Shown here in pieces: positions 2,035 to 43,720 of a stretch of DNA of 45,204 nucleotides. This DNA is from Escherichia phage vB_EcoS_011D5: sequence record NC_073085.1, one strand, 5' to 3'. Position numbers and translations under genes: made by a program. The notes below the pieces were generated by a model. It did no database searches, was not told the origin of the DNA, and saw nothing but the letters and a program-made list of their open reading frames with translations. Position 1 is the stretch's first letter, and each line of letters begins with the position of its first letter.

Positions 2035-4326
2035 TTATTTCCTGTACCTGTACATAATGTCGCCTTCCGCGGCAAGCGGGAAGCCTTTCGCCCAAATAGG
2101 CAGGTCGCACATCAGCGCGCATAGCTCCTCGGTCGTGTAATCGTCAGTATCCGGCACTTCGGTGATCAGTTCATCGTGTACGGACAGTACGATCTCATAT
2201 CCCGCAGCTTCAACGCCCGGCATGGACCATGCGAGGATATCGCGACACAGCGCCTGCACGATGTTTTCCGTGAGTTTTCCGCCGTAGGTGTACTGGGATC
2301 CCCACTGGCGCGTCGTCTGATTCTCACCCTGATATTTAATGCGGGTGCTGGTGCGTTTCTTGCCGGTATCTTCGTCGATCTCGGTCGTCACTGACAGCGC
2401 AATGCCTGGATAACTCATAATACGCCCCGACGGCAACTCAATTTTCAACCACCACCCCGCGGCGTTCGGGTCGTCGCGTTCCTCGTCGAAGGTTGGGTCA
2501 TGCTTCGCCTTCGTGCGGACTATCTTGAGCGCTTTCTTACCATCCGGGCGAACGTTCGCGCCAGCCCAGTACGCTTTGCCAGGATTGCGGATTGCACACA
2601 ACACCGCGTCCTCAAGCTCGGCCCAAAAGGCTACCGTCTTCGGGTGAGCCTCGCGCCACATGCGTTTAATCGCATCACACGTAAGCCATACGTTTTTCGG
2701 CAGTATGTAAGTCGGGCGCTCGTCCTTCTTGCCCGGCTTCGGCGGTCGCTTCGCTTCGTTAATGCGGGCATATTCATAACCACGTTTCGCCGCCGCCCAA
2801 ATGTGATCGGGGAATGTGCCCTTCATCACGTCAGCCATCGCATAAAGGTCGAGGCCCAGGTTTTTAGCGAACTGCAAGAACGCAGCCACGCCGCCGCCGT
2901 AGCCCAGGCCCAACTCACACGCCTTACCAATCTGGCGTAAGTCCTTGCGGTTGGCTTTAATGTATTCCGGGTCAAGGCCAAACATCTTACCGGCAGTTTC
3001 ACAATAAATATCGCGACCGGCCCTAAACACCATGAGCGCTGTTTTCTCGCCAGCGATCCAGGCAAGGCCGCGCCCTTCCACGTTGGAGTAGTCCGCAACG
3101 ACAAACTTCTTGCCCTTCGCCGGAATAATGCACCCGCGAACGGTCGAGGCCGTTAGCTTCGATATGTCATACGCCCAGTGTGCGGTCCCGCGTAACAGGG
3201 AGTTGATGCCGTTGGTGAGCATGTGCGACCGCACCCAAAAAGATATATCGCTCTCGCCCTCGCGGCGCTTAATCTTCCCTTCGTGGTCGTCGCTATACTC
3301 GCCACGCGCCAGGTTTTGCGGCTGGAAGCCTTTACCGGCCCAGCGTAGCGTGCGCTTTGCCCCACCATACTGAAGACAACCACGGCGGCGACCATCGGCG
3401 GACAGGCCATTTACGAGCGGATTGTACTTAGTCGATGCCGTTGATGACGCTCCGAGGCGCATCTCGATAAGCACTTTGCCTTCATCGGGGAAGTCTGGAT
3501 CTTCCAGCAGGTCGTTAAGCGTGGATTTCTGCGCGTTGTGGATTGTGAACGCAGGCGCGAGGTCACGCAGCGCTGGCAGGAAGTCATTGCCGGTCAGCTT
3601 ACCGCCGAAGCGCTCCCATGCTTCTTCCTTCAATTCTTCCTTATGCGCCTGTACCGCTTTGATCGCAGCGCGCGCCAGGTCGACGTCTACATAGAAGCCG
3701 CGGTCATTAATCAACTGGTCAATAAGCAGGATTTCGTCTTCCTTCGGCGTGTTACCCCAGTCCGGTATGCGCCAATAGACTTCACGCATCGCGACAATAT
3801 CCAGCGCAGCATAGCGCAGGAATTTAGCCCACTCCTCTGGGTGCGTCTCGCGCGTGTAGCGTCGGATTTTGTAGGTCCTAGGGGTAGGCTTACAGAATCG
3901 TTTAATCAGCGCCTTGCCTGCCTTATCCTTCGCGTGCTCTGCATCAACGCCCAGCACCTGGCACTGCATATCGAGGCTACCAGGCAACGCGTGTCGGAAG
4001 GCCATAACCATGGTGTCTTCGATCTGGCACACTGGCAAGTCAATACCCCACTTTTCGCGAATAACCAGGCGGTCAAACAGGAGGCCGTTAGCCATCACGA
4101 TTTTTGCTTTCTTGCGGGATACCTGGCGGAGCGCCTTGCGCAGTTCACGCGGCATTGTAGGGGATTCGGTGCAATCCCATGTCTGTACGCGGCCCTCGTC
4201 GATGGCGTAGGTGCAGATCATAATCTCGGTTGTCGGGTGCTCCGCGTAGGCGTATGCGCCCACTTTCTTCAGGTCTACCCCGCTAAATGTCTCGGTATCG
4301 AGAAACAGGCGTTCGAAGTCTTTCAT
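2035..4326 (-). CDS. Family A DNA polymerase with N-terminal 3'-5' exonuclease domain (T7 gp5-like)
   Basis: Exo I FLDTETFS; motif A VVADYSNVEGRGLAWIAGE; motif B RKDLRQIGKACELGLGYGGG; motif C VLSVHDELITEVP; start set at MKDFERLF (ATGA overlap with upstream small ORF). Confidence 0.9.
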   Translation of the reverse strand: MKDFERLFLDTETFSGVDLKKVGAYAYAEHPTTEIMICTYAIDEGRVQTWDCTESPTMPRELRKALRQVSRKKAKIVMANGLLFDRLVIREKWGIDLPVCQIEDTMVMAFRHALPGSLDMQCQVLGVDAEHAKDKAGKALIKRFCKPTPRTYKIRRYTRETHPEEWAKFLRYAALDIVAMREVYWRIPDWGNTPKEDEILLIDQLINDRGFYVDVDLARAAIKAVQAHKEELKEEAWERFGGKLTGNDFLPALRDLAPAFTIHNAQKSTLNDLLEDPDFPDEGKVLIEMRLGASSTASTKYNPLVNGLSADGRRRGCLQYGGAKRTLRWAGKGFQPQNLARGEYSDDHEGKIKRREGESDISFWVRSHMLTNGINSLLRGTAHWAYDISKLTASTVRGCIIPAKGKKFVVADYSNVEGRGLAWIAGEKTALMVFRAGRDIYCETAGKMFGLDPEYIKANRKDLRQIGKACELGLGYGGGVAAFLQFAKNLGLDLYAMADVMKGTFPDHIWAAAKRGYEYARINEAKRPPKPGKKDERPTYILPKNVWLTCDAIKRMWREAHPKTVAFWAELEDAVLCAIRNPGKAYWAGANVRPDGKKALKIVRTKAKHDPTFDEERDDPNAAGWWLKIELPSGRIMSYPGIALSVTTEIDEDTGKKRTSTRIKYQGENQTTRQWGSQYTYGGKLTENIVQALCRDILAWSMPGVEAAGYEIVLSVHDELITEVPDTDDYTTEELCALMCDLPIWAKGFPLAAEGDIMYRYRK

Positions 4327-4493
4327 TGCTGAATCCTCACTACGGCGTCGGCGCTGCCGATCATGGAGAAGATACCGTCGGAAAGGGTAATCTCCCCGCC
4401 GTTGTTGCGAATCTCGGCAACGATGAAATACTCGCCCAGCATTTTGGACCATACTCGCATTCCGACTTTTACTTCGCTGGCTTTAATACGCAT
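4323..4493 (-). CDS. Small hypothetical protein (~56 aa), translationally coupled to the polymerase
   Basis: Read by eye: MRIKASEVKVGMRVWSK...; RBS AGGA upstream; stop overlaps polymerase ATG. Coordinates approximate. Confidence 0.4.
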   Translation of the reverse strand: MRIKASEVKVGMRVWSKMLGEYFIVAEIRNNGGEITLSDGIFSMIGSADAVVRIQQ

Positions 4494-4507
4494 TTTTCAT
4501 TGTCCTA

Positions 4508-4533
4508 TTAAAAAGCCCGCATTAAGCGGGCTT
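4508..4533 (-). terminator. Intrinsic terminator/attenuator after SSB-like gene
   Basis: Hairpin AGCCCGC-atta-GCGGGCT followed by a T-run on the minus strand. Confidence 0.5.
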
Positions 4534-4551
4534 GAATAGTGGGCTTTGCCC

Positions 4552-5337
4552 TTAACGGCGGCGACGTTTACGTGGTGCTTCGTCTTCGTCGTCTTCGTCC
4601 TCATCTTCGTCATCGCGTGGCTTACGACGTTTACGAGGTTTCTCATCTTCGTCGTCTTCGTCGTCATCGCGGCGCTTGGACTTTTTGGACTTGCGCGGCT
4701 TGTCGTCTTCGTCATCGTCATCACGACGTTTTGACTTTTTGGACTTGCGCGGGCTTTCATCTTCGTCATCATCGCCCAGGTCTTCGTCGGAGCAAGAAGA
4801 ACCGCCACCGCCGAAGGATTCACCATCATCGCGGAAGCGAAGACCCAGCAATCCCGCACCGAGGCCTTTACCGTTGGTATTATTCCACGCCCAAATATCC
4901 AGGGACACGTTGCAATAACAACCGGAGTAGATCTCCTGGCCTTCGATCTCGTCGCCTTCTATGGTCAGACCTTGTTCCGTCTGCTTCTCGCCGAGTGACG
5001 TTTGAATGATCGGCTGTTTGAACGATTTGGCGTTGATGTACAACATGCCTTCGAATTCTTCGGTTACTTCGTCGCGCTCGTCACCGTCGCGAACTGCGCA
5101 TTCCTTAGAATCCTGAGCGTAGTGACGGTCCATCCACTTATCAGCATTCTTCTCGGATTTCAGCTTGTCGGTGAGCACTGCGCGCGCTGCCGCTTCCACT
5201 TTGTCCACCTGCGGATCTTCTTTATCAAGAAGAATCACTGCACGGTATGCCGGTTTTTGTCCATCCTGTTTAGGGGTATCACGTTCCCAGATTTTCAGGA
5301 AACATACGCGCACATTTTTCAGGTTGACTTTAGCCAT
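4552..5337 (-). CDS. Putative single-stranded DNA-binding protein with mixed-charge repetitive C-terminal tail
   Basis: N-terminus MAKVNLKNVRV...YRAVILLDKEDP resembles phage SSB N-termini; C-terminal tandem repeats DDDEDE..PRKSKKSKRR; RBS GAGGA. Confidence 0.5.
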   Translation of the reverse strand: MAKVNLKNVRVCFLKIWERDTPKQDGQKPAYRAVILLDKEDPQVDKVEAAARAVLTDKLKSEKNADKWMDRHYAQDSKECAVRDGDERDEVTEEFEGMLYINAKSFKQPIIQTSLGEKQTEQGLTIEGDEIEGQEIYSGCYCNVSLDIWAWNNTNGKGLGAGLLGLRFRDDGESFGGGGSSCSDEDLGDDDEDESPRKSKKSKRRDDDDEDDKPRKSKKSKRRDDDEDDEDEKPRKRRKPRDDEDEDEDDEDEAPRKRRRR

Positions 5338-5427
5338 TTTCCAATTCCTCATTTTCACATGTATCGGGGTTATTATGAGCCACCCCGTTCGGCTTGGTTG
5401 CTAATCTACTTGGTTGCACCTAAGCGG

Positions 5428-5670
5428 TCAAGCACTTTTATTAAAAAGATTTCTGGTCACGTAGTTGGTAGCGTTCTCGACCCAGCTTAACGGCGGTCGG
5501 TCGATGTTCTTCTCCACCCAGTCGACGGCAGCGTCACTATATCCGTCGTCAAGCCAGCGGGTCGGATGGCGAATCATCCACGCCACCATTAACACGCCCT
5601 GCACGCAATGCAGGATAAAGCCCAGCGCGCCGAGCAAAAACATCAATAAGATCGCAAATACTTTACTCAT
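5428..5670 (-). CDS. Small membrane protein (one TM helix)
   Basis: Hydrophobic stretch FAILLMFLLGALGFIL; start overlaps exonuclease stop. Confidence 0.5.
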   Translation of the reverse strand: MSKVFAILLMFLLGALGFILHCVQGVLMVAWMIRHPTRWLDDGYSDAAVDWVEKNIDRPPLSWVENATNYVTRNLFNKSA

Positions 5671-7093
5671 TGCTTAAGTCCTCGTCAGTGGCCTCCGACC
5701 ACGCAGGGCGCGGGTCGTCGATGGGTGCTAATACCGGTTTAGCCGGTGCGCGAGTGATTTTAGCACACAGCTTCGCCCACACTTTCGGTTTTTCGTCCTT
5801 CAGTACCTTCTCGGCATCGGTAGGGCTGAGCAATGTTTCTTTGTACATCACATCGCGCTTGATCCGGGCCTTCGTGAATATTTCAATCACTTCGCTCTCG
5901 TCCGCCCACTTCCGGATCCCTTCCTTACCGGCAACCATCTTGAGGCCCAGCGATTCGCCATCCCCCGCCATTACCGCTTTGAATACCGCGGACTCGATAG
6001 CTTTGATGTGCTGGCGCATTGCGTCCAGACCTTCATACGCCTTGCGCAGTTCCGCCGCGCTCATAGCGCCGGGGGCCGATTCCTTATTGCCACGCTTCGC
6101 ACGTCGGGCTGCCTTCCGGGCTTCGCGGGCCATATTGCGGTCGTGGTTGGCGCATTCTTCCTCTGTCGCAATACTCACGTCATCGCCCAGGTCTTCGTCG
6201 GTTGCCGTCGGTGGGGTCATCGTGTCGATTGCGGCCTTAGCGCGGGCACTACACTGATCCGCAAATCTGCACCACTGGCACGCATCGACGCTGGGCCGGA
6301 AGTCCGCGCGGGTGAGTCCCTTCTTGCCTCGGGAATACGCTTCCAGTGCGGCGATAGCGCGCTTGGATGCAAACTTCGCGAATATCTCCAGGGCTTCTAC
6401 CGAAATATCCCACTCCGACGCCCCACCGCAATACGGCTGGAAGATAACCAGGCGAACGGTCGTAATGTCGTACATGGTTTGCAGCTTGCGCAGCAGGCCT
6501 AGCGCGTACAACATAAGCTGTTTGTTTTCTTTTGCCTCGACCTTATGTCGCCCGGTCTTCAGGTCGCCAACAATCAGCATGTACGTGCCGTCGGTCTTCT
6601 TCATGACCATGACCATATCAGCAGTGCCGAACGTCTTAACCTTGTTGCCGTCGATCTCGAAGCCCGAGTGAAGGACACGGGTAAGATCGGCGCGCATCTC
6701 AAGCTGGACAAACTCCGCCACTTCGAGGAGCGGTCGCCAGTGGTCGATGTATGCATCGCACTGTTTCACCATATCATCATTGACCAGTACGCCGCCTTTC
6801 GGCGCTTTCGGGTGTGCCTTTACTGGCCCCTTTCCTTCGTTCTCGACGTAGCACCCTTTATACGTCTTCGCGGTTATTTTCTTCTCACCGGCGATAATGC
6901 GGTTTAGCAACACTTCAGATACGGTGTGCATACTCGTACCGTTAATCGCGGCTTGCCCGGATTCGTTCGGGATATCTTTTTCCACCACCAGGGCGGCAGG
7001 GCAACCCATCCATTTTTTAGCACCGGACGGTCCGAGTAATGAGTGTTCCGTATTACTACCGGATTGCGTTTTACGTTTTGGTTTAATCGCCAT
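5663..7093 (-). CDS. RecB/Cas4-family PD-(D/E)xK exonuclease with C-terminal Cys cluster
   Basis: N-terminal GPSGAKKWMGCPA; IVGDLKTG...QLMLYALGL (D/ExK and QxxxY); C-terminal CQWCRFADQC. Confidence 0.75.
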   Translation of the reverse strand: MAIKPKRKTQSGSNTEHSLLGPSGAKKWMGCPAALVVEKDIPNESGQAAINGTSMHTVSEVLLNRIIAGEKKITAKTYKGCYVENEGKGPVKAHPKAPKGGVLVNDDMVKQCDAYIDHWRPLLEVAEFVQLEMRADLTRVLHSGFEIDGNKVKTFGTADMVMVMKKTDGTYMLIVGDLKTGRHKVEAKENKQLMLYALGLLRKLQTMYDITTVRLVIFQPYCGGASEWDISVEALEIFAKFASKRAIAALEAYSRGKKGLTRADFRPSVDACQWCRFADQCSARAKAAIDTMTPPTATDEDLGDDVSIATEEECANHDRNMAREARKAARRAKRGNKESAPGAMSAAELRKAYEGLDAMRQHIKAIESAVFKAVMAGDGESLGLKMVAGKEGIRKWADESEVIEIFTKARIKRDVMYKETLLSPTDAEKVLKDEKPKVWAKLCAKITRAPAKPVLAPIDDPRPAWSEATDEDLSNE

Positions 7094-7281: not shown

Positions 7282-7533
7282 TTATTTTGTCTCCCAGCGG
7301 TCAATTGTTTTTGCTTCGGATGCAACGGCGAAGCGAACAAATTCCAGATTGGAATCCGCCCAAATATAAAAGTCGGGGTTAGTAAAAGTGGTGCGCTTAA
7401 TTTGCGCGGGTGTGTTGCGGCGTTTGTCTATTACGGCAACGCGGGACTGAAAATTGCCGATGCGTTCGAATAGCCAATAATATGGGCGCTGGTCGCGGGA
7501 GTCCACCGCCTCGATTAGCGTGAAACGTGCCAT
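7282..7533 (-). CDS. Hypothetical protein (83 aa)
   Basis: ORF-track, ATG start, operon context. Confidence 0.45.
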   Translation of the reverse strand: MARFTLIEAVDSRDQRPYYWLFERIGNFQSRVAVIDKRRNTPAQIKRTTFTNPDFYIWADSNLEFVRFAVASEAKTIDRWETK

Positions 7534-7544
7534 TGTCTCGTCCT

Positions 7545-7573
7545 CTAAAAAGAGGCCCGCAGATTAGCGGGCC
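7545..7573 (-). terminator. Intrinsic terminator-like hairpin
   Basis: GGCCCGC-agatta-GCGGGCC followed by a T-run on the minus strand. Confidence 0.45.
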
Positions 7574-7581
7574 GGATAATA

Positions 7582-7707
7582 TTAGTCTTCTCCGCCGAGT
7601 TGTTTATAAACTTCGTCCGGGTCGTCGCCTCTTTCTTCGCAGAAGGCGGTGAATGCCGCCCAGTTTTCTGCTATGAAATCGAGCGTGATTCTCATTTCAT
7701 AGTCCAT
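7582..7707 (-). CDS. Small acidic hypothetical protein (~41 aa)
   Basis: Read by eye: MDYEMRITLDFIAENWAAFTAFCEERGDDPDEVYKQLGGED; not in ORF track (<60 aa). Confidence 0.35.
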   Translation of the reverse strand: MDYEMRITLDFIAENWAAFTAFCEERGDDPDEVYKQLGGED

Positions 7708-7711
7708 GATA

Positions 7712-8221
7712 TTAGTCTTCCAGTTCGAAATAGGTTTCGACGATTTCTTTCAGATCTTTGTGGAAATCTTCCACGTCGTCATCTTCCAGCTTGGCGATTG
7801 ATTTGATCTCGAACGCTTCCAGCAGGTCGTCAAATTCGTCGTTCGCATCGTCATCATCACCGCCTGCGATAATCGCGGCATACTGTTTGATTTCGTCGCG
7901 CATCTCTGCCAGCGGGTCGGCATCTTTCTTACCTTTGCCTTTCGCTGGTGCTTTTTTACCCTTCGCCGGTTTTTCGTCTTCGGCTTCATCGTCGTCATCT
8001 TCTACGACTTCTTTTTTGGCCTTACCTTTCGCCGTGGCTTTTTTACCTTTCGCCGGTGCTTCGTCTTCAGCGTCGTCATCTTCTACGACTTCTTTTTTGG
8101 CCTTAGCTGGCTTTTTATCTTCCTGCTTACCAACGGCAGCGCCCACGGTTTCATAATGTTTTGCGATGATTTCCAGTGCTACTACGCCGCGAGTGATCAG
8201 GTTTACGATTTGCTCAAACAT
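7712..8221 (-). CDS. Acidic early protein with tandem KKEVVEDDD-AEDE-PAKGKKA-AKGK repeats; first gene of the leftward operon
   Basis: ORF-track 7712..8449 trimmed to MFEQIVNL; RBS GGAGA; ~84 bp tandem DNA repeat at ~7970-8140; acidic C-terminus DEFDDLLEAF...EDDDVEDF. Confidence 0.6.
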   Translation of the reverse strand: MFEQIVNLITRGVVALEIIAKHYETVGAAVGKQEDKKPAKAKKEVVEDDDAEDEAPAKGKKATAKGKAKKEVVEDDDDEAEDEKPAKGKKAPAKGKGKKDADPLAEMRDEIKQYAAIIAGGDDDDANDEFDDLLEAFEIKSIAKLEDDDVEDFHKDLKEIVETYFELED

Positions 8222-8621: not shown

Positions 8622-8951
8622 ATGAATATCAAAGAAGCAATTGAAGTGTTATCTAATGCAATCCGCGGCGAAGCGGGTAAATCCTGGTATTACACAAATG
8701 CGGTGGATACTCTGTTATTTGAAGTGTCCAGATTATCGCGTGCTGAGAAGGAGCTTACCGCGAAGCTGGAATTACTCAACGGCACGGCAGCAAGCAAGCT
8801 GCAAAAGCACAATGAAGAAATGGAAGAATACAAAAAACAGGTTATCCGTTTGCGCGCCGAGGGCAAATCCTGGGCAATGATCGCTGAGTTGACAGGAATT
8901 AATCAGAGCACCGTGCGCTCCTGGGTACGCAATAATAAAACTTCGAAGTAA
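8622..8951 (+). CDS. HTH DNA-binding protein (putative early transcriptional regulator)
   Basis: C-terminal HTH-like SWAMIAELTGINQSTVRSWV; first gene of the rightward operon. Confidence 0.6.
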   Translation: MNIKEAIEVLSNAIRGEAGKSWYYTNAVDTLLFEVSRLSRAEKELTAKLELLNGTAASKLQKHNEEMEEYKKQVIRLRAEGKSWAMIAELTGINQSTVRSWVRNNKTSK

Positions 8952-11490: not shown

Positions 11491-11705
11491 ATAAAATCCG
11501 GGATTGCATAATACACGGCAGCATATTGGAAATCGCGGTCGTCGCTGAACTAGGCAACCAATGCGAGTTGCAGAATGGTGGGTGGGGAATGCAGTTTGCA
11601 GTTACAGCAGATAGCGATCAACTTTTTCATGCGCATGATTAATATTGGTTGCATTCGTGCCAGCACCCTGCTAGATTGGTTGCACACCAACAAGAGGACT
11701 GAACA

Positions 11706-12032
11706 ATGAAAAAATTAATCTGGAATTACGCAATGGCTATGGCGAAGGCACAAGAAGCGGCGGAGTTCGCCGGTGAGGGGGTGGAAGCAGTAGAAAGACT
11801 ATCGGCAGCGTGGGCCGTTGTGCGGGTGATGCGGCGGGCCATCGCCGTTATGCTTGAGCGCCGCTTCGACACGATGGAAGAGATCCAGCCACTGGCGAAC
11901 GCCATCCAGGACTACGCGCTTGCATTCTCCCGTGAGCGCCTGGCGTATCGCTTCGGGATCGGTGAGACGGCAGTGACAAACGTCGCCCGGATTAAAGCAC
12001 AGCGCGAACTATTTGCCCAGCTTGCGAAATAA
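11706..12032 (+). CDS. Hypothetical protein (108 aa)
   Basis: ATG with RBS AGAGGA; TTGGTTGCA motifs upstream. Confidence 0.55.
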   Translation: MKKLIWNYAMAMAKAQEAAEFAGEGVEAVERLSAAWAVVRVMRRAIAVMLERRFDTMEEIQPLANAIQDYALAFSRERLAYRFGIGETAVTNVARIKAQRELFAQLAK

Positions 12033-18618: not shown

Positions 18619-20139
18619 ATGACCGTTAACGTTGACAACCAGCACCCGCTCTATGCGCGCATCGCGCCAGAGTGGAAAATGATCCGTGATTGTGTAGCAG
18701 GGGAGCGCGCCGTGAAGGCGTGCGGCCCCTTGTACCTGCCACACCCCGCCAGCGGCGACACCACCGACCCGAAATCACGGGCACGCTATAAGGCATATAA
18801 GCAACGCGCTGTCTTCCTGAACGCCACCGCACGCACACTGAATGCACTGTTAGGCGTGGCCTTCGCCAAGCCGGTGAGCATGGACCTTTCCGGGGCAATG
18901 GCTGACCTGATTGATGACGTAGACGGCAGCGGGATGCCACTGGCGCAACTCCTGCGCGGCGCTATGTCGGAAGTGCTGCAATCAGGCCGCGCTGGCTTTA
19001 TGGTGGACTACGACCGCCAGGCTAACTTTGATGAACTGGGTAACGTAGTGCCGCAGACAGCCGCTGAAATGGCGACACATCGCCCGCTTATCCGCCTGTA
19101 TACGGCTGAGCAGATCATTAACTGGCGGCAGACCCACGGGGTCGACACGCTAATCGTGCTGAAGGAGACGGATGAAATCAGCACCGAAGACCCTGACGAC
19201 TTCGCAAACCACGAAGTAACGATCTGGACTGAGCTTCGCATGATTAACGGTGTTGCGCATGGTCGCCGCTGGTTTTACAACGCGGACACGTCCGAAGTGC
19301 AAATGGACTTGCCGCGTGGCTTCACCCGCACCGACCTTGTGCCGCTGGTGGATGCCGACGGTAATGCGCTTACTCAACTGCCATTTTGCTGGTGTGGTGC
19401 TGTGGACAACAACGCGACGCCGGACGCCGCACCGCTGGCGGATATTGCATCCATCAACATTAAGCACTATAACGCCGAAGCAGACGTCGCCGAGATTGCG
19501 CACATTGTGGGACAGCCTACTCTTATCGCGACTGGGCTAACCCAATCATGGGCGGATAAAAACCTGAAGGGCGGCATCGCGCTCGGGGCAACTAAGGGCG
19601 TTATCCTGGGCCAGAACATGGACGCTAAACTGCTTCAGGCCGAAGAACGAAACCTATCGGTCGCACTGTGTGAGCGCCGAGAATTGCAAATGGCTAAACT
19701 AGGCGCGGCCCTGGTCGAAAAGGGGACCGCACCTAAGACGGCAACTGAAGCGGCCTACGATGCGCAGACTGATAACAGTATCCTGTCACTGATTGCCGGT
19801 AACGTTGAGAAGGCTTTCAACCGTGCGCTGCAAATCGTCAAGCTGTTCACGGGAGACACCGCAGATCAACGTGTAACGCTGAATAAGTTCTACACCGAGA
19901 TCACGGTTGACGCACAGCTTATGACCGCGATGATGGCTGGTGTGCAGACCGGTACGGTCCGTCTGGCGGACTTTATCAAGTGGATGATGGCCCAGGGCGT
20001 CATTGATGACTCGCAAACCGTTGAGCAGGTGGAAGACGAATTGCGAAATCAGAATCCATTGCCTCAAATGTCCCCGGATGCGGTAGAATCTACCGAAGAA
20101 GACCCGGACAAGGTAGCGGACAATGGCGAAGACAATTAA
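18619..20139 (+). CDS. Portal protein
   Basis: 506 aa directly after TerL; acidic C-terminus; synteny. Confidence 0.7.
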   Translation: MTVNVDNQHPLYARIAPEWKMIRDCVAGERAVKACGPLYLPHPASGDTTDPKSRARYKAYKQRAVFLNATARTLNALLGVAFAKPVSMDLSGAMADLIDDVDGSGMPLAQLLRGAMSEVLQSGRAGFMVDYDRQANFDELGNVVPQTAAEMATHRPLIRLYTAEQIINWRQTHGVDTLIVLKETDEISTEDPDDFANHEVTIWTELRMINGVAHGRRWFYNADTSEVQMDLPRGFTRTDLVPLVDADGNALTQLPFCWCGAVDNNATPDAAPLADIASINIKHYNAEADVAEIAHIVGQPTLIATGLTQSWADKNLKGGIALGATKGVILGQNMDAKLLQAEERNLSVALCERRELQMAKLGAALVEKGTAPKTATEAAYDAQTDNSILSLIAGNVEKAFNRALQIVKLFTGDTADQRVTLNKFYTEITVDAQLMTAMMAGVQTGTVRLADFIKWMMAQGVIDDSQTVEQVEDELRNQNPLPQMSPDAVESTEEDPDKVADNGEDN

Positions 20140-21226
20140 TCAATATATGGCGGATCGAATGATTCGCCGACACATTTTCACCCAGCGCCTGAGTAATGAC
20201 CAGGCGCGAAGGGTGCTGTCCATGTGGGAGAAGTTCCGGCCTACATTACTGGGGAAGCTGACCGAGTTGCTTGATGGCAAATCGTCAATGAATAACCGGG
20301 CACTTTCCACCCTGCTAACGCAAATCGACAAGACCGTAAAAACGGAACTGCGCACCGAGTTTAAGGCGTTGGCTGAAAGCCTTCAGGAGTTTGCAGACAC
20401 GGAGGCTGATTATCTCGCCGACACATTAACGGCAGCGATCCAGCCGGTGGTCGCAGTACCTGCGATCGAGGTGGTGGGTGTAGTGACCGGTGCGCAGATC
20501 GCAGCGACTGCGATGAAAAACCCGTTCCAGGGAAATACCATGATGCAATGGCCTGACTCACTTTCTGAGTGGACCAGGACGCAGATCGGTAATCAGGTGC
20601 GAGCGGGATTCATCCAGGGCAAGCCGACGATGGAAATTATCGCGGACGTGAGGCGCGCGCTAGGTGGTCGTAGTGCGCAAGCTATCTCGAGCGTTGTTAA
20701 GTCCGCAGTCAATCACTATGCGGCTACCGCCCGAGAACTAATGGTAAAAGCAAATGACGATATTCTCGAAGGTCGCCAATGGTTATCTACATTGGACACG
20801 CATACTTCTCCCATGTGCCAGCTACGCGATCGCCTGTTTTATCCGGTTGATGTTACTCCCGACACCAAAGGAAAGCGCGGCGGGAAAATGGTGGCTGGGT
20901 CACAATATGGCGCTGGTCCGGGCAAGTTGCATTATTGTTGCCGGTCTACGGAGACGTGGAAGGTTAAAGGCATGGAAGATTGGCCCAGTGGTAAGCGTCC
21001 GGCGCTGAAGGCTGACGCGGGTCGATTGCTGAGTGAGCAGGTCGACGCGCAGACTGATTTCTTCTCATGGGTGCGGCGCCAGCCGCGCCATATCCTGGAA
21101 GAATTATACGGAGTGCAACGCGCCGACCAGATTATGCGCGGCGTGAAAGTGCCGAAGATGTTTACCGATTCTGGCGAACTGATGACTATCGCACAGCTTA
21201 AAAACCGGGGGTTATGGCGTGATTAA
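20123..21226 (+). CDS. Head morphogenesis / minor capsid protein (Mu F / SPP1 gp7-like position)
   Basis: 367 aa following portal with slight overlap; synteny. Confidence 0.6.
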   Translation: MAKTINQYMADRMIRRHIFTQRLSNDQARRVLSMWEKFRPTLLGKLTELLDGKSSMNNRALSTLLTQIDKTVKTELRTEFKALAESLQEFADTEADYLADTLTAAIQPVVAVPAIEVVGVVTGAQIAATAMKNPFQGNTMMQWPDSLSEWTRTQIGNQVRAGFIQGKPTMEIIADVRRALGGRSAQAISSVVKSAVNHYAATARELMVKANDDILEGRQWLSTLDTHTSPMCQLRDRLFYPVDVTPDTKGKRGGKMVAGSQYGAGPGKLHYCCRSTETWKVKGMEDWPSGKRPALKADAGRLLSEQVDAQTDFFSWVRRQPRHILEELYGVQRADQIMRGVKVPKMFTDSGELMTIAQLKNRGLWRD

Positions 21227-21548
21227 ATATGCAGCGATTGGACTGGTTATCGGTCTGGCGGTAGGATTCTGGCTAGGTGACTCCTATCGCGCTGGCGTAG
21301 TGGCGGAGGCGGCGCAAGAAGCGCAAGCCAAAGCCCAACGGCAGCAAACTAAAGTTGTGGAGCGCTCCGTGCAGGCCGAACAGGCCCGCGACGTGGAATA
21401 CCGGACTATCACGAAAGAGGTTGTTAAATATGTTACGCGCCCTAACCGCCCTGATTGTAGTTTTGATGCTGAGCGCGTGCGGATCAAGCAACGCGCCGTT
21501 GATGCCGCTAACGGAGTCGGCACTGCGACCGCCGTGCAAGTTCGATAG
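21219..21548 (+). CDS. i-spanin (Rz-like): N-terminal TM helix plus coiled coil
   Basis: MIKYAAIGLVIGLAVGFWLG then charged helical region; GTG start. Confidence 0.6.
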   Translation: MIKYAAIGLVIGLAVGFWLGDSYRAGVVAEAAQEAQAKAQRQQTKVVERSVQAEQARDVEYRTITKEVVKYVTRPNRPDCSFDAERVRIKQRAVDAANGVGTATAVQVR

Positions 21549-21660
21549 CCCGTCCGCAGACCCCGACGAGGATTTGATGATTGACGTGAAAAATATGGAA
21601 TGCGGGGCGAAGCTAAGGGCGCAGGTGCTGGAGTTGCAGCAAATAATTAAGGGGCCGTAA
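21430..21660 (+). CDS. o-spanin (Rz1-like) lipoprotein, +1 frame overlapping the i-spanin 3' end
   Basis: MLRALTALIVVLMLSAC lipobox LSAC; Pro-rich mature region; overlapping-gene architecture. Confidence 0.6.
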   Translation: MLRALTALIVVLMLSACGSSNAPLMPLTESALRPPCKFDSPSADPDEDLMIDVKNMECGAKLRAQVLELQQIIKGP

Positions 21661-21672
21661 TGGCCCCTTTTT
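21650..21672 (+). terminator. Intrinsic terminator between convergent genes
   Basis: GGGGCC-gtaa-GGCCCC followed by TTTTT. Confidence 0.65.
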
Positions 21673-21674
21673 CG

Positions 21675-22439
21675 TTAGCGCGGAATACCGCAAATCTCGT
21701 TGAGAGTTTTCACATCCAGCGCCACCGCCGTGGATTTTGGCTTATCCGGGTAAGGGATGAATTGCTCAACTTCAGGCCATGCCTTAATCAGCTTCTTATC
21801 GGTATTGTGCATGTCCAGCACACCGGTAACGGTAAACTTGAATGCGTCATACTTAGCACGCAACTCACGGCGGGCCTTGTCGTTACGGTCAAGGCGCTTG
21901 CAGAAGTCATGATCTGCCGGGAAATCCGCACGGCAGCGTGGCTTATAGATCGGCAGCGATTTTCCGTCCTCGTCCACTTCACACACTGAAGCCAACATAA
22001 CTGTCTCGAACCCCGGAACGATATCTCCGAGATCAGGCGAGAGCGTATTCATATATTTCTCTTCCCAGTATCCGCGATGTACGCGGTATTGGCGACCGTC
22101 ACCGCTCAAGGACAAGATGCGAACATTGCCGCCTGCGTTGATTTCAAAGGTGGCGTCGTAAACGCTGCCGATACCCTTCGGGCGATCTGTGTCATAGCGA
22201 TATGTTGCCTTGTTGGTGTATACGCTGACGTTGTACATCTGCGACTGGTCGTCGCGGATTGCCTTGATATGCTCGCGGAGCGCTGCGAACGTGCGAATGC
22301 CTTCCGGCATACAGTCCAGCGTGATTGCGTACGCCAGGTCGCGAGAGTCCATCATGATTGTTTTGGCTTCGGTAGCGATTTCGTGGTCGCGCAGGATGTT
22401 AGCCAGGATCTGATTTTTAATGTCTTTCGTCAGTCTCAT
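21675..22439 (-). CDS. Hypothetical protein (254 aa) in a minus-strand cassette inside the head module
   Basis: ATG start, opposite strand to flanking structural genes; no motif recognised. Confidence 0.6.
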   Translation of the reverse strand: MRLTKDIKNQILANILRDHEIATEAKTIMMDSRDLAYAITLDCMPEGIRTFAALREHIKAIRDDQSQMYNVSVYTNKATYRYDTDRPKGIGSVYDATFEINAGGNVRILSLSGDGRQYRVHRGYWEEKYMNTLSPDLGDIVPGFETVMLASVCEVDEDGKSLPIYKPRCRADFPADHDFCKRLDRNDKARRELRAKYDAFKFTVTGVLDMHNTDKKLIKAWPEVEQFIPYPDKPKSTAVALDVKTLNEICGIPR

Positions 22440-22478
22440 TTTTATGTCCTCATTTTAGGGGCTTTCGCCACGATTGGT

Positions 22479-22793
22479 TTAGTTGAATTTGATGTTGCCA
22501 CCGGTGGAAGTTAAGCGGGCACATACAGCTTCAACGGCATCGACGCACATGAAATCGTTAAAGGCTTCGACCAGGGCGTTTATGAAAGATGCCGGAACCA
22601 GGCCGCAAGCCGGATTATCGAATATCGCGGAGTTGATCGCCGCTTTTGCCGCTTCAGAAGCATTCATGCTCTGGCACAGATTCAGCGCTTCCGCGTTACG
22701 CATTGCGTGAAAGGTAAAGGTATTAGCTACGGTAGCTTTATTGAAACGGGCCATTGCGGCGTCTACTGGAGTTGCTACGGTCATGTTAGTCAT
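22479..22793 (-). CDS. Hypothetical protein (~104 aa), first gene of the minus-strand cassette
   Basis: RBS AAGGAAG 7 nt upstream of ATG; preceded by two TTGGTTGCA motifs. Confidence 0.5.
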   Translation of the reverse strand: MTNMTVATPVDAAMARFNKATVANTFTFHAMRNAEALNLCQSMNASEAAKAAINSAIFDNPACGLVPASFINALVEAFNDFMCVDAVEAVCARLTSTGGNIKFN

Positions 22794-22947
22794 TTTGTCT
22801 TCCTTCATATCTCTGTTGGTGTGCAACCAATATACTGCAACCAACATTCGCAATGCAAGCGAATTTTGCGATTATTTTTATCGCTGATAATATTAAGGCG
22901 TGAAGTCAAGCGGGTGGCCCGCTTTGCCACAATCCCAGGGGGATAGC

Positions 22948-23649
22948 ATGAAACTTACTAAAGCAGAATATGACGCGTTGCCGGAAGGCATGAAGGCGCT
23001 TTTTGTTGCCGATGGTGACGGGTATAAATCCACGTTCATGACCGCCGAAGAAGTACAGGCGGAGATCAAGGGTCTGAAAGACAACAACGCGAAGCTGGTT
23101 AGCGAAAAGAAAGCAGAAGCCGAACGCCGCGCCGAAGCCGAGCGCCTTGCGAAAGAGAAAGAGGAAGCCGCCGCGCGCAAAAATGGCGACCTCGAAGCGA
23201 TCGACAAGTCCTGGAAAGATAAGTTTGCGAAACACGAAGCAGACACATCGGGAAAAATCGAAGCCTACCGCAAGCAGATCCACGATCTAACCATCGGCAG
23301 CGCTGCCAAAGACCTGGCGTCGAAGCTATTCGGTAAGAATGCCGGGATCATGCAACGCCACGTTATGGACCGCCTGACGCTGGAAGACGGCGAAGACGGC
23401 AGCTTGAAAGTGCGTGTCTTGCAGGATGGCAAACCGTCCGCGCTGACTATGGAAGAGCTTGAAAAAGAGTTCCGTAATAACGCCGATTTTGCATCCGTCC
23501 TGGCTGGCACGCCAGCCGGTGGTGCGCCGAGCAAACCGACGCATGTTGTCGAAGATGTGAAGTCGAAAATCTCTATGGGCCACAGCTTCGGCATCACCGA
23601 TCTGACGAAACAGGCTGGTGAAATCATCGCTAAAATGGGCGACGAGTAA
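22948..23649 (+). CDS. Scaffolding protein
   Basis: Helical charged protein (AEAERRAEAERLAKEKEEAAARK) immediately upstream of the major capsid gene. Confidence 0.65.
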   Translation: MKLTKAEYDALPEGMKALFVADGDGYKSTFMTAEEVQAEIKGLKDNNAKLVSEKKAEAERRAEAERLAKEKEEAAARKNGDLEAIDKSWKDKFAKHEADTSGKIEAYRKQIHDLTIGSAAKDLASKLFGKNAGIMQRHVMDRLTLEDGEDGSLKVRVLQDGKPSALTMEELEKEFRNNADFASVLAGTPAGGAPSKPTHVVEDVKSKISMGHSFGITDLTKQAGEIIAKMGDE

Positions 23650-23653
23650 GCAC

Positions 23654-23680
23654 ATTGCCCGCGAAAGCGGGCAATTTTGC
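23654..23680 (+). terminator. Weak terminator/attenuator hairpin
   Basis: TTGCCCGC-gaaa-GCGGGCAA followed by TTTT. Confidence 0.35.
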
Positions 23681-23746
23681 GAGCGCGTAAATCTAAGGTA
23701 ACATTAACGGTACTGGGCGAATGCTCACAACTCAAAGGATTTCGAT

Positions 23747-24841
23747 ATGTCTTTAACAGTGTTCCAGCGTAAACTCGTCACCGCGGTTACGCAAATGATC
23801 CCCGATAACCTGAACGTGTTCAACGCTGCCGCTAACGGTGCTGTTGTTCTCGGCACGGGTGAAGTGCTGAAGGACGTTGTGGAAAAAATGTCCGTAGGCT
23901 TGATCGCTAACCTCGTTACCGATCGTAACGCCTATGCCCCTGTCGGTACTCCGGCGACCGCAAAAGTGCTGGCGCGTATGCTGACCAACTCCGTTAACCT
24001 GTCCGCGAAAGTGGGTCCGGTAGCAATCACTAAGGCCATGATGGCTAAGATCGAAACCAACGTTAACAGCGTTGCGGCTGAGATTGCGGCACAGGCTACT
24101 CAAGCGATTATGCTGCATTACCTGAAAGCAGGTATCGGCGCAAGTAAAGCGGCGATCGAGAGCAACGCAGCGGCAAAATACACCCAACCGGCGCGCGTTG
24201 ACGGCGTTGGCGGTCGAACCTTCCCGACCCTCGCAGACTTCCCGCTGGCGGCGTCCAAGTTCGGCGATCAGGCGTCTTTAATTAAATCCTGGTTTATGGA
24301 CGGCGTTACCTGGGCAAACTTCATTGCATACCAGGCGCTCCCGTCTGCCGAGCAGGTATTCGCGATCGGCGACCTGCAGGTAATGGGCGATGGCTTGGGC
24401 CGTCGTTTCATTATTTCCGATGCCGCTGCCGATGCTATGGGTGCTGGCACGATGCTTGGTCTTGTCCCTGGCGCGGTTGCAGTTACGACCAATGGCCTCG
24501 ATATGCTGGCGCAGGAAAAAGGCGGCAACGAGAACATTGAGCGCTGGTGGCAGGGCGAGTTCGACTTCAACGTGGCTGTTAAAGGCTATCGACTGAAGGC
24601 GTCCGCACGTACTCCGGTCGAAGGTGTTCGCTCGTTCAAACTGTCCGACATCACCACTTCCGATAACTGGGAACTGGACCAGGGCCAGGTAGACAACGCA
24701 CCGGCAACCGTGCAGGACGTTGGAGGCGATAGCGATACTAAAGGCCGCCGCCGTACGCAGACCGCGCAGGCAGTGCCGACCCGTCACATCAAGGAAACGG
24801 CTGGCGTACTGGTTACGCTGACTGCGACTACCGCGTCTTAA
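23747..24841 (+). CDS. Major capsid protein
   Basis: 364 aa after scaffold; RBS AAGGA; followed by a strong terminator. Confidence 0.7.
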   Translation: MSLTVFQRKLVTAVTQMIPDNLNVFNAAANGAVVLGTGEVLKDVVEKMSVGLIANLVTDRNAYAPVGTPATAKVLARMLTNSVNLSAKVGPVAITKAMMAKIETNVNSVAAEIAAQATQAIMLHYLKAGIGASKAAIESNAAAKYTQPARVDGVGGRTFPTLADFPLAASKFGDQASLIKSWFMDGVTWANFIAYQALPSAEQVFAIGDLQVMGDGLGRRFIISDAAADAMGAGTMLGLVPGAVAVTTNGLDMLAQEKGGNENIERWWQGEFDFNVAVKGYRLKASARTPVEGVRSFKLSDITTSDNWELDQGQVDNAPATVQDVGGDSDTKGRRRTQTAQAVPTRHIKETAGVLVTLTATTAS

Positions 24842-41730: not shown

Positions 41731-41794
41731 AGTATTACCCTTTTTAGTGAGGGGGCTTTATTGCCCCCGACACGTTTAATATAGTGCAACCAAC

Positions 41795-42265
41795 CTATTG
41801 GTTGCAAGTGAATTTTGCAACGTTTATTGCGTAAATTTTCGGGACCAAATCACCACACGCCCGACGAATTGCCGCGATGTTCTTCTCGCAATCTTCAATG
41901 ATGACCAGTTCCGACACGTCCGCATAGCAGACCATTTTGAACACGGCGCACGCCTTAAACTCTGGCGGCGGGGTGTCGTCCAGCATGTGGCGCATAAACA
42001 ACCGGCCTACCGGGAAGACCTCCAATTGCTCGGCGGTGGTGTCCCAGCATTCTCGCTGCCGGTTGGTCAGATACGCGATCTCGAAGCCTCGCTCTTTGTA
42101 CATGCGCAGCAACGGCAGCATATCCATATTCAGGTCTTCGCGTACGTGCGCCTTGTGCCACTTCGCCCAAAAGGTGGATTTAGTTTTTATACCAGGCACC
42201 AGGTCGGCGCGCGCATCGCTTGAACCGTTAATAACTCCATCCAAATCGCAAATCAGTAATTTCAT
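41795..42265 (-). CDS. HAD-superfamily phosphatase / nucleotidase-like
   Basis: Motif I LICDLDGVI; motif II YLTNR; C-terminal acidic motif IIEDCEKN. Confidence 0.7.
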   Translation of the reverse strand: MKLLICDLDGVINGSSDARADLVPGIKTKSTFWAKWHKAHVREDLNMDMLPLLRMYKERGFEIAYLTNRQRECWDTTAEQLEVFPVGRLFMRHMLDDTPPPEFKACAVFKMVCYADVSELVIIEDCEKNIAAIRRACGDLVPKIYAINVAKFTCNQ

Positions 42266-42486
42266 TTTAGGCTCTCAATAAGGGTGGCTCGGGCGCTACG
42301 CGCGGTGTAAGAGTTGCACACGAAATGACAACGTCGGGTCATGACAAGCCAACCGGTGAGGTCAAGGCCCAGGATGTATTCGGGGCGAGACGCGCGCACC
42401 ACACGATCGCGGCGTGGGTCGATGTTATAGTCTTTTTGCATTTGGTCTACGACCGCGTGGTCGCGGTCAACGATTAAGATATTCAC
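42262..42486 (-). CDS. Small hypothetical protein
   Basis: ORF-track; GTG start overlapping the 3' end of the Dam-like gene. Confidence 0.3.
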   Translation of the reverse strand: MNILIVDRDHAVVDQMQKDYNIDPRRDRVVRASRPEYILGLDLTGWLVMTRRCHFVCNSYTARSARATLIESLK

Positions 42487-42952
42487 GTAGTTCTCCTTCG
42501 CTCATTATTTCAATTTGTGCGCTGCCGATGGGCGGCGCTTCGTCAAAGATTATCAATTGCTGGCACTTGTTATTGCTCGGCCCGACTTCACCGGTTACAG
42601 CATGTATGAATCGGATCCGCCAGTCCAGAAGAATTATCAGGTTTGCAGTCTTCCGGGCCAGCTTCGCCCACTTAGTCGACGTGTCCTGATTCAGTAGCAT
42701 GACGGTCCGGCGTCCGTGCGCTGCGCACTCGACCCACGGCAGCGGATCGGAATACGGCGGATTGCACCACTTCCACCCTTTCAACTCCGACCAGTCCGCA
42801 TCGAGCGCGCTGTGCTCTGCCGTGAAGTAACGCGGCAGCAGGTGGTTTGCGTCGCTCGCCGCCATATCGTAACGGAATCGGTACTTCCGGCGCAGTGGTT
42901 TAAATAAAGCTGGCGGTGTGCGCCAGCTATCTTTTTGCTCATTCTCCGTCAT
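42467..42952 (-). CDS. Phage Dam-type DNA N6-adenine methyltransferase
   Basis: WRTPP...FRYDMAASDANHL...WCNPPYS (NPPY catalytic motif). Confidence 0.8.
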   Translation of the reverse strand: MTENEQKDSWRTPPALFKPLRRKYRFRYDMAASDANHLLPRYFTAEHSALDADWSELKGWKWCNPPYSDPLPWVECAAHGRRTVMLLNQDTSTKWAKLARKTANLIILLDWRIRFIHAVTGEVGPSNNKCQQLIIFDEAPPIGSAQIEIMSEGELREYLNR

Positions 42953-43640: not shown

Positions 43641-43720
43641 CGTGTTGTCTCCGGGTATTAAAAAGGGCGTCCAACCGGACACCCTTAAGATAATGCAACC
43701 AATATGATTATGCAACCAAT

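Follow-up and report, generated by a model that had tools for sequence, protein, structure and literature searches.

The leftward gene pair and its boundaries

The window analysed here is the whole 45,204-bp stretch of Escherichia phage vB_EcoS_011D5 (NC_073085.1), and the system under study is a pair of minus-strand genes, nmad5 and p104, located between the o-spanin and scaffold genes and flanked by rightward genes on both sides. The pair probably (at a rough probability of 0.7) represents a leftward Dhillonvirus operon that comprises a regulated promoter, a swappable cargo slot, a resident nmad5 gene encoding a non-hypermodifying accessory factor, and a shared terminator. Gene nmad5 (254 amino acids, aa) occupies positions 21675-22439 and is the orthologue of coding sequence 7 (CDS7) of phage PhiSMA8. 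It is preceded by a 39-nt intercistronic spacer (22440-22478, minus strand) containing its ribosome-binding site (RBS), GAGGA at 22451-22447, and by p104 (104 aa; 22479-22793, minus strand; phrog_24635), the cargo gene in the variable slot. The p104 start is the ATG at 22793, which follows the RBS GAAGGAAG (22799-22806, minus strand) at a distance of 5 nt; its homologues share the same methionine, and GAAGGAAG is kept in an alignment of nine loci wherever the cargo is p104 or an alternative 135-aa gene. Both open reading frames (ORFs) of an earlier note on this DNA were thus confirmed at the coordinates given there, with lengths of 254 and 104 aa. Among Dhillonviruses, the ratio of nonsynonymous to synonymous substitution rates (dN/dS) was approximately 0.115 for nmad5 (55 pairs), 0.05-0.1 for p104 and 0.03 for the scaffold gene; both ORFs are real and under purifying selection. 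Neither inspection of the sequence nor a terminator scan revealed a hairpin or terminator in the 39-nt spacer, and the two genes were therefore regarded as a single operon.

At its downstream end, the operon meets the terminator that the earlier note had proposed, and this is a real hairpin. In the structure AAGGGGCC-GTAAT-GGCCCCTT (21649-21669), six of the 9 bp of the stem are G:C, T-runs are present on both strands and the minimum free energy is -23.2 kcal/mol (z = -2.76). It lies between convergent stop codons, with the o-spanin stop in the loop and the nmad5 stop 5 nt away. The hairpin was kept in all 11 Dhillonvirus loci compared, including a compensatory change from A:T to G:C in the stem, and is predicted to act bidirectionally, ending both the rightward spanin and the leftward nmad5 transcripts.

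The surrounding genes are encoded on the plus strand. In rightward order, the terminase precedes the portal gene (18619-20139), a MuF-like head morphogenesis gene (20123-21226) and the i-spanin gene (21219-21548), with the o-spanin gene embedded and ending at 21660; the scaffold (22948-23649) and major capsid protein (23747-24841) genes follow the pair and are succeeded by the tail genes. The pair had been described as inserted inside the head-morphogenesis module, which is correct by position, but it lies at the junction of two rightward units (terminase to spanins, and scaffold to tail) and not within one operon. Across positions 21200-23000, the window matches Escherichia phage EC115 at 100% identity and the 45,204-bp Dhillonvirus vB_EcoS_L-h 1M, in which the coordinates are the same, at 99.3%. 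Neither Rfam nor tRNA scans gave a hit anywhere in the window.

Control region and the phage-wide TTGGTTGCA element

The divergent region between p104 and the scaffold start at 22948 (22794-22947) is conserved. In the alignment of nine loci representing five slot states, the sequence was almost invariant for approximately 135 bp, counted from the scaffold start codon as far as ...TATATTGGTTGCACACCAAC, and divergence began immediately afterwards, the sequence just past ...CACCAACA differing according to the cargo. From this invariance, not from a consensus score, a leftward promoter is proposed at 22858-22829. Its predicted -35 hexamer is TTGCAT (22858-22853), of which TTGC is invariant across loci, and its predicted -10 hexamer, TATATT (22834-22829), stands 18 nt away in invariant columns. 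The general form in the invariant part, TTGC(A/G)N and TATATT separated by 17-18 nt, fits a sigma-70 promoter with a weak -35. A consensus sigma-70 scan of 20500-24000 returned no promoter at threshold, the predicted promoter falling below it because its -35 is weak. The sequence TTGACT at approximately 22905 was considered as another -35 and rejected, being replaced by CTCGACT in other loci and having no -10 at the proper distance.

Two minus-strand copies of TTGGTTGCA overlap the predicted promoter. The first (22836-22844) lies in the promoter spacer, and its TTGGTTGC portion is invariant in the nine loci. The second (22822-22830) begins inside the -10 hexamer, whose last two T residues are its first two bases, and covers the likely start site. 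This second copy is held by a promoter-proximal 18-mer, ATTGGTTGCACACCAACA (22814-22831, minus strand), which also contains the imperfect palindrome TTGGT-N5-ACCAA, is invariant in the nine loci irrespective of their cargo and has the cargo junction directly downstream. The promoter-like region with two motifs and a strong RBS that had been claimed here consequently stands in respect of both TTGGTTGCA copies, GAAGGAAG and conservation, but it gave no hit in the consensus scan.

The remainder of the control region (22859-22947) is near-invariant in the nine loci. On the plus strand, a candidate scaffold promoter, TTGCGA-16-TAATAT, can be read from the sequence in this part, and the scaffold 5' leader contains a short GC hairpin, aGCGGGtggCCCGCt with TTTG after it (approximately 22909-22923), which lies about 25 nt before the start codon and is kept in 9/9 loci. 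A 41-aa ORF annotated on the minus strand of L-h 1M (22805-22930) is conserved at all nucleotide positions and is probably not a gene, but a by-product of regulatory DNA.

The TTGGTTGCA element is distributed across the phage genome. The window contains 13 exact copies, compared with 0.47 expected, and none of 100 shuffles reached this number. Numbered on the plus strand, their first bases are 5410, 8426, 11645, 11676, 12228, 15007, 22822, 22836, 38923, 41785, 41798, 43694 and 43711. All copies lie in gene-free gaps, often paired 14-35 bp apart, and the sites include a divergent region (8426), the region upstream of the gene at 11706, that upstream of a lipoprotein gene (38923) and the pair at 43694/43711. 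A perfect palindrome, TGCAACCAA-TAGG-TTGGTTGCA, is found at 41785-41806. The 18-mer ATTGGTTGCACACCAACA recurs identically at 11675-11692 on the plus strand, upstream of gene 11706-12032, giving two exact copies against 0.02 expected. A sigma-54 reading of TTGGTTGCA was rejected on inspection, the GG/GC spacing being wrong. The distribution suggests that TTGGTTGCA probably serves the non-structural genes of the phage as an operator or promoter element. Within the late rightward block (16650-37652), there are no copies apart from the two at the nmad5-operon promoter, and we therefore infer that the operon would be co-regulated with non-structural (early/middle) genes, not with the head genes. 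The earlier note had regarded the cassette as independently transcribed; TTGGTTGCA occurs genome-wide and is not private to the cassette, so an operon under the phage's own non-structural regulation is preferred. A candidate TTGGTTGCA-binding regulator is the 109-aa helix-turn-helix (HTH) protein encoded by the first gene after a TTGGTTGCA site (8622-8951, plus strand). This protein matches HTH_23 and Sigma70_r4_2, and a related record names it 'DNA recombination nuclease inhibitor'.

Resident nmad5 and the variable cargo slot

The earlier note found no recognisable motifs in either protein. A profile search of the 254-aa protein gave an end-to-end match to Pfam family PF18757 (Nmad5, nucleotide modification associated domain 5; E = 1.6e-60; 205.2 bits against a gathering cut-off of 27 bits; profile positions 1-206 of 206), and phrog_1965 was matched at E = 1.6e-62; for the 104-aa protein the statement holds, the Pfam search having produced no significant match. 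The window Nmad5 aligns with that of PhiSMA8 over 254 aa without gaps at 86% identity, Lys216 is the same residue in both, and the PhiSMA8 layout (spanin, nmad5, p104 homologue, scaffold) is that of the window. Gene nmad5 is an already known, named and partly characterised Dhillonvirus gene.

Its characterisation comes from work on Tmn, a KAP-NTPase defence (Yamashita et al. 2025, Commun Biol; PMC11846954). Tmn-escape mutants of PhiSMA8 (CDS7) and PhiSMS22 (CDS6) carried Lys-to-Glu changes in nmad5 at equivalent positions, K216E and K296E, and the PhiSMS22 protein is reported to have an N-terminal 80-aa extension. Tmn sensitivity returned when the escape mutation was reverted. A PhiSMS22 phage with nmad5 deleted was viable and remained Tmn-sensitive, and nmad5 could not be cloned owing to apparent toxicity. 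Escape was accordingly a property of the mutant allele K216E only, whereas deletion neither sensitised nor rescued the phage. In the same paper, Nmad5 is labelled 'DNA modification enzyme' on the family name only. The published phenotypes were obtained in PhiSMA8 and PhiSMS22 and not in the phage of the window, but the gene, its neighbours and Lys216 are the same, and escape through K216E/K296E, a deletion that is viable yet still Tmn-sensitive and cloning toxicity should all transfer to the window's orthologue. A cargo for host interaction, defence or anti-defence, as had been suggested for the cassette, gains from the published link between nmad5 and Tmn; a defence or anti-defence function of the wild-type genes would be a candidate role.

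Lys216 is located inside the best-conserved stretch of the family, T213-x3-L217-x3-W221-P222, and the AlphaFold model of Nmad5 has predicted local distance difference test (pLDDT) values above 90 over residues 170-230. Thirty Nmad5 sequences, drawn from a few subfamilies and extending down to 24% identity, share invariant G104, G113, P167, L217, W221, A240, L246, N247 and G251. The motifs held in common with distant members are an N-terminal M-R-L-T-K/N-D/E-I-K, a central G-G and a C-terminal T..L...WP(E/D) ... LN...G.P.

Distribution of the gene was assessed in 157 Dhillonvirus-like records, namely those found with scaffold and capsid DNA. Full-length Nmad5 was present in approximately 146 of these (~93%), in each case at the site described here. 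In all 11 metagenomic (IMG/VR) Dhillonvirus loci, nmad5 lies on the opposite strand between the o-spanin and scaffold genes, and the most divergent sampled locus (L011, 64% identity) keeps it at the same site. Escherichia phage Teewinot (OK499993; L023, approximately 2500-2640) carries a clean internal deletion that removes nmad5 between about codon 37 and its last five codons; some 37 codons remain, and the promoter/operator and terminator are intact. A truncated gene of 184 aa is found in SM_S24. The GC content of nmad5 is 52.5%, and its GC content at third codon positions (GC3), 0.64, is within the range of its neighbours (0.60-0.64). The earlier view of the 254-aa gene as a variable moron is contradicted by this occurrence at one site, by its neighbour-like composition and by its membership of a named family. 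Since it is near-universal in the genus, nmad5 is a genus-conserved resident gene and not a recent moron.

The position upstream of nmad5 is variable. Comparison of the locus across related phages, as the earlier note had advised, revealed variability in this slot alone, nmad5 itself being conserved. The occupant is p104 in 59/157 records, examples being the window, L003, L004, L007 and SM_A8. A 172-aa protein with a DnaN/sliding-clamp-like segment takes its place in 16/157 records at >=80% identity (EP23, L002), a 135-aa family, 172 aa long in SM_W22, in ~7/157 (HK578, Zar3M, SM_W22), and a 53-aa protein in 4/157 (EK99P-1, Dru_SM5). The slot is empty, leaving a 149-bp gap, in L009-L012, for example, and the remaining records are empty or hold something else. 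All of the occupants have relatives in unrelated phages: homologues of the clamp-like protein occur in many Salmonella and Klebsiella siphoviruses, and those of the 135-aa protein in Serratia and Erwinia phages. The clamp-like protein is encoded at 7401-7919 (plus strand) of L002, corresponding to 5929-6444 of Shigella phage EP23, and again as gp42 of Pantoea phage AAM37 (L020, 401-967). It resembles a conserved segment of DnaN over a short length and below threshold (RYYLNGV...SDGHRL; TIGR00663, E = 2.4e-5) and belongs to phrog_3007. This single-domain clamp fragment is common among enterobacterial siphoviruses, with 248 phage records, and is annotated as 'DNA pol III beta' or 'RusA-like'.

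Pantoea phage AAM37, Aglimvirinae and two metagenomic contigs carry p104 homologues. In each case the surrounding genes are early, replication or superinfection-immunity genes, and Nmad5 is absent. In L036 (5374-5589), the homologue stands directly upstream of a superinfection-immunity (Imm_superinfect) gene. The early region of a metagenomic 47-kb contig with a p104 homologue (L035, 344-2287) encodes adenylosuccinate-synthetase-like and HD-domain (YfbR-like) proteins, a pair that we take to be reminiscent of the genes of 2-aminoadenine (Z) genomes. The p104 family is small: it comprises 10 clusters at 90% identity, and a HMMER scan of 1.84 billion representatives recovered 4 proteins only. 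The protein is mostly alpha-helical, and His29, Cys63, Cys83 and Cys91, invariant among homologues, could form a metal site. A profile search against the PDB gave no match, the AlphaFold2 model was too poor for a fold search (pLDDT 51.8), and a Pfam hit to Mis12 (E = 0.2) was dismissed as a chance match. PADLOC-DB at E <= 0.01 yielded nothing for Nmad5, p104 or three alternative cargo proteins, and NCBIfam yielded nothing for Nmad5 or p104. With a GC content of 50.2% and a GC3 of 0.54, p104 deviates slightly from the 0.60-0.64 of its neighbours.

The moron or accessory-gene hotspot concept was defined for lambdoid phages. Gene p104 resembles the morons of tailed phages: it is present, absent or replaced among relatives, has a fixed junction between promoter and terminator, and has homologues in unrelated phages. 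The idea of a moron-like gene is thus upheld for the 104-aa member by its patchy occurrence, replacement by unrelated genes or nothing, homologues in unrelated phages and slightly deviant GC3. Unlike morons, p104 has neither promoter nor terminator of its own but sits between an existing conserved promoter and a resident gene, and, unlike in prophage morons, there is no prophage expression because the phage is virulent. Absence from collinear close relatives characterises p104 only (at least four other slot states) and not nmad5. A conserved promoter-like region, sub-threshold in the scan, and a hairpin do flank the pair, and both belong to the nmad5 unit, not to p104. For the cassette as a whole, the accessory reading of the earlier note therefore retains the conserved promoter region and terminator, the opposed orientation, the non-structural nature of the genes and the moron-like p104, but fails on the genus-wide nmad5.

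Consequently, a classic two-gene moron, in which the whole cassette was recently acquired, is autonomous and serves defence or anti-defence, is unlikely. Beyond its orientation, its flanking signals and the mobile p104, dispensability (PMC11846954; the Teewinot deletion) and the faster evolution of nmad5 relative to its neighbours (dN 0.059 versus 0.008 for scaffold) are in its favour. Against these stand the persistence of nmad5 at one site in nearly the whole genus, even in L011, its neighbour-like GC and GC3, and a promoter motif common to about 10 other intergenic regions, by which the unit is not autonomous; only the p104 slot is moron-like. We instead suggest that p104 would be a horizontally exchanged orphan using the promoter of nmad5, one of at least five alternative slot states or occupants. 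As a patchily distributed, mobile gene in a slot behind a regulated promoter, p104 most likely belongs to the accessory class devoted to host takeover or counter-defence, an assignment of class and not of mechanism.

Function of Nmad5 and competing explanations

In the preferred reading, a leftward two-gene Dhillonvirus operon would lie at the boundary of two rightward late units. A weak sigma-70-type promoter, overlapped by TTGGTTGCA in its spacer and at its -10/+1 region, would drive the cargo slot and then nmad5, probably switched with the non-structural early/middle genes, and the transcript would stop at the hairpin common with the convergent spanin genes. Gene nmad5 is a resident, non-structural PF18757 gene, dispensable in the laboratory and toxic when cloned, in which charge reversal of Lys216, in the most conserved C-terminal helical motif, permits Tmn escape and deletion does not. 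This organisation is within the known kinds of phage genome layout.

An opposing explanation holds that Nmad5 is a DNA base-modification enzyme, that the cassette modifies phage DNA and that Tmn senses the modification. The family owes its name to an association with hypermodification genes, and the Tmn paper interprets Nmad5 in this way (PMC11846954). In Pseudomonas phage M6, gp056 is encoded between aGPT-Pplase1 and a thymidylate-synthase-like gene (PMC9476957). The M6 protein and SN1_019 of Sphaerotilus phage belong to the same Pfam family as the window's protein (E = 2.2e-33 for M6 gp056) and share its C-terminal T-x3-L-x3-W-P-E ... L-N-x3-G-x-P motif. They are 186 aa long, without the Dhillonvirus-specific insert (residues ~127-165), and their genes lie inside aGPT-Pplase, kinase, radical S-adenosylmethionine (rSAM) and pyridoxal-phosphate (PLP) enzyme clusters beside a hydroxymethylase, whereas the window is without these genes. 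Pfam scans of 20 non-structural window proteins detected no hydroxymethylase, 5-hydroxymethyldeoxyuridine (5-hmdU) kinase, aGPT-Pplase, rSAM or PLP enzyme. A thymidine hypermodification pathway of the M6 or ViI type calls for a thymidylate-synthase homologue that makes 5-hmdU, a 5-hmdU DNA kinase and an aGPT-Pplase, and these scans found none of the three. The sole modification gene found in the window encodes a Dam-like methyltransferase (42467-42952), 20 kb from nmad5. The association with base-modification genes that gave the family its name is hence not seen in the window; it is a contextual trait, not needed for membership by sequence.

Evidence from other phages and from the protein itself runs in the same direction. 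Dhillonviruses are reported to be sensitive to restriction-modification systems (PMC11990801). The M6 pathway was reconstituted in vitro from gp51-gp54, without Nmad5 gp056, and no function has been demonstrated for Nmad5 even in hypermodifying phages (PMC8989533). G, P, L, W and A make up most of the residues that are invariant in the 30 homologues, and a conserved acidic, His or Cys set of the catalytic type was not found among them. Comparison of the Nmad5 model with solved structures gave no structural relative and no match to an enzyme-like fold; a BFVD structure search matched other phage Nmad5 proteins only, and the best PDB profile match, Cas8f-HNH, was rejected as not significant (E = 0.13). 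The nmad5-deleted phage is still sensed by Tmn (PMC11846954), which argues against an Nmad5-made modification as the trigger. A hypermodification role in this phage is unlikely, and the whole modification explanation quite unlikely.

The genomic settings of homologues are associated with DNA transactions. Elsewhere, Nmad5 is found in early, replication or immunity regions and never in head modules. In several siphoviruses (L013, L033, L041), it heads operons encoding a DUF2800 nuclease, an Enc34-type single-stranded DNA-binding protein (SSB) and PolA. The same replication module is present on the minus strand of the window (2035-7093), with the DUF2800 PD-(D/E)XK nuclease at 5663-7093, the Enc34-type SSB at 4552-5337 and PolA at 2035-4326; the Dhillonvirus nmad5 is separated from it and placed in the late region. 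In temperate phages, an MT-A70 or N6_N4 methyltransferase gene lies nearby, or directly downstream with translational coupling, and a DUF4406-Nmad5-MT-A70 methyltransferase triad with 4-nt gene overlaps recurs in temperate contigs (L038-L040). In Shiga toxin (Stx) phages and HK542, the pL operon has nmad5 immediately behind N. These temperate-phage copies are of the same family (E = 3e-71), small, non-structural, and located behind a regulated early promoter in an accessory-gene region. Their setting is the pL/immunity region, where recombination or methyltransferase genes run in the same direction, whereas the Dhillonvirus copy is isolated, reversed and in the late region.

From these settings, we suggest that Nmad5 may be a non-catalytic or accessory early factor whose target would be phage DNA during replication, or the proteins by which DNA is modified or replicated. 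Such a factor would explain the toxicity of nmad5 upon cloning. The K216E change would alter an interaction surface rather than abolish Nmad5 function, in line with the observation that deletion does not phenocopy the mutation.

Several points weigh against the preferred reading. The TTGGTTGCA element may act as a -35-like promoter element, as an operator or in another way, and it occurs in mixed orientations with respect to genes. The promoter did not reach the scan threshold, and its position and timing were deduced solely from conservation and motif sharing. The argument that Nmad5 may be non-catalytic draws on 30 sequences of few subfamilies, and the recurrent adjacency to methyltransferase and hypermodification genes may fit a modification-linked role. 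The relation of wild-type Nmad5 to Tmn is ambiguous, because the deletion phage remains Tmn-sensitive.

It is very unlikely that p104 and Nmad5 form a toxin-antidote pair in which p104 neutralises a toxic Nmad5. The toxicity of nmad5 cloned alone (PMC11846954) and the layout of a small upstream gene with a 39-nt gap, suited to co-transcription, agree with such a pair, but in approximately 60% of Dhillonviruses nmad5 is not accompanied by p104, the slot being empty or filled by unrelated genes. Conversely, p104 homologues occur without Nmad5 in the Pantoea phage, Aglimvirinae and metagenomic contigs, so that obligate co-occurrence is lacking, and PADLOC gave no match. A structural or assembly role in head morphogenesis is suggested by position only (portal/MuF/spanin to scaffold/capsid) and is highly improbable given the opposite strand, the separate promoter, the viable engineered deletion (PMC11846954), the natural deletion in Teewinot and the settings of Nmad5 homologues outside head modules.

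The study newly places the orphan p104 in a hotspot of gene exchange and describes a conserved promoter/operator architecture and a terminator used from both sides; neither the promoter/operator, nor the terminator, nor the variable slot is described in the accessible text of PMC11846954. A broader view is tentative and, on balance, rather doubtful: the slot would be a dedicated exchange site for small counter-defence or host-takeover genes, and p104, with its His-Cys3 set, would represent a previously undescribed inhibitor of a protein of bacterial immunity or DNA metabolism. Nmad5 would then be a non-enzymatic hub on replicating DNA that is monitored indirectly by Tmn-like defences, and the proteins found in place of p104 (clamp-like, 135-aa and 53-aa) would add to this set of effectors.

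Dhillonviruses rank with the coliphages most frequently isolated for therapeutic use, and nmad5 is the only phage gene so far in which changes are known to defeat Tmn. Because this gene is genus-wide, separately regulated, dispensable and probably not a hypermodification enzyme here, the range of what Tmn may sense is narrowed, and caution is warranted against spreading the 'DNA modification enzyme' label in annotations. The slot provides a short list of candidates for anti-defence or host-takeover screens, namely p104, the clamp-like fragment and the 135-aa and 53-aa proteins, and a natural cargo-insertion site for phage engineering under native regulation. Together with the candidate HTH protein, TTGGTTGCA offers an entry point to gene regulation in Dhillonviruses.

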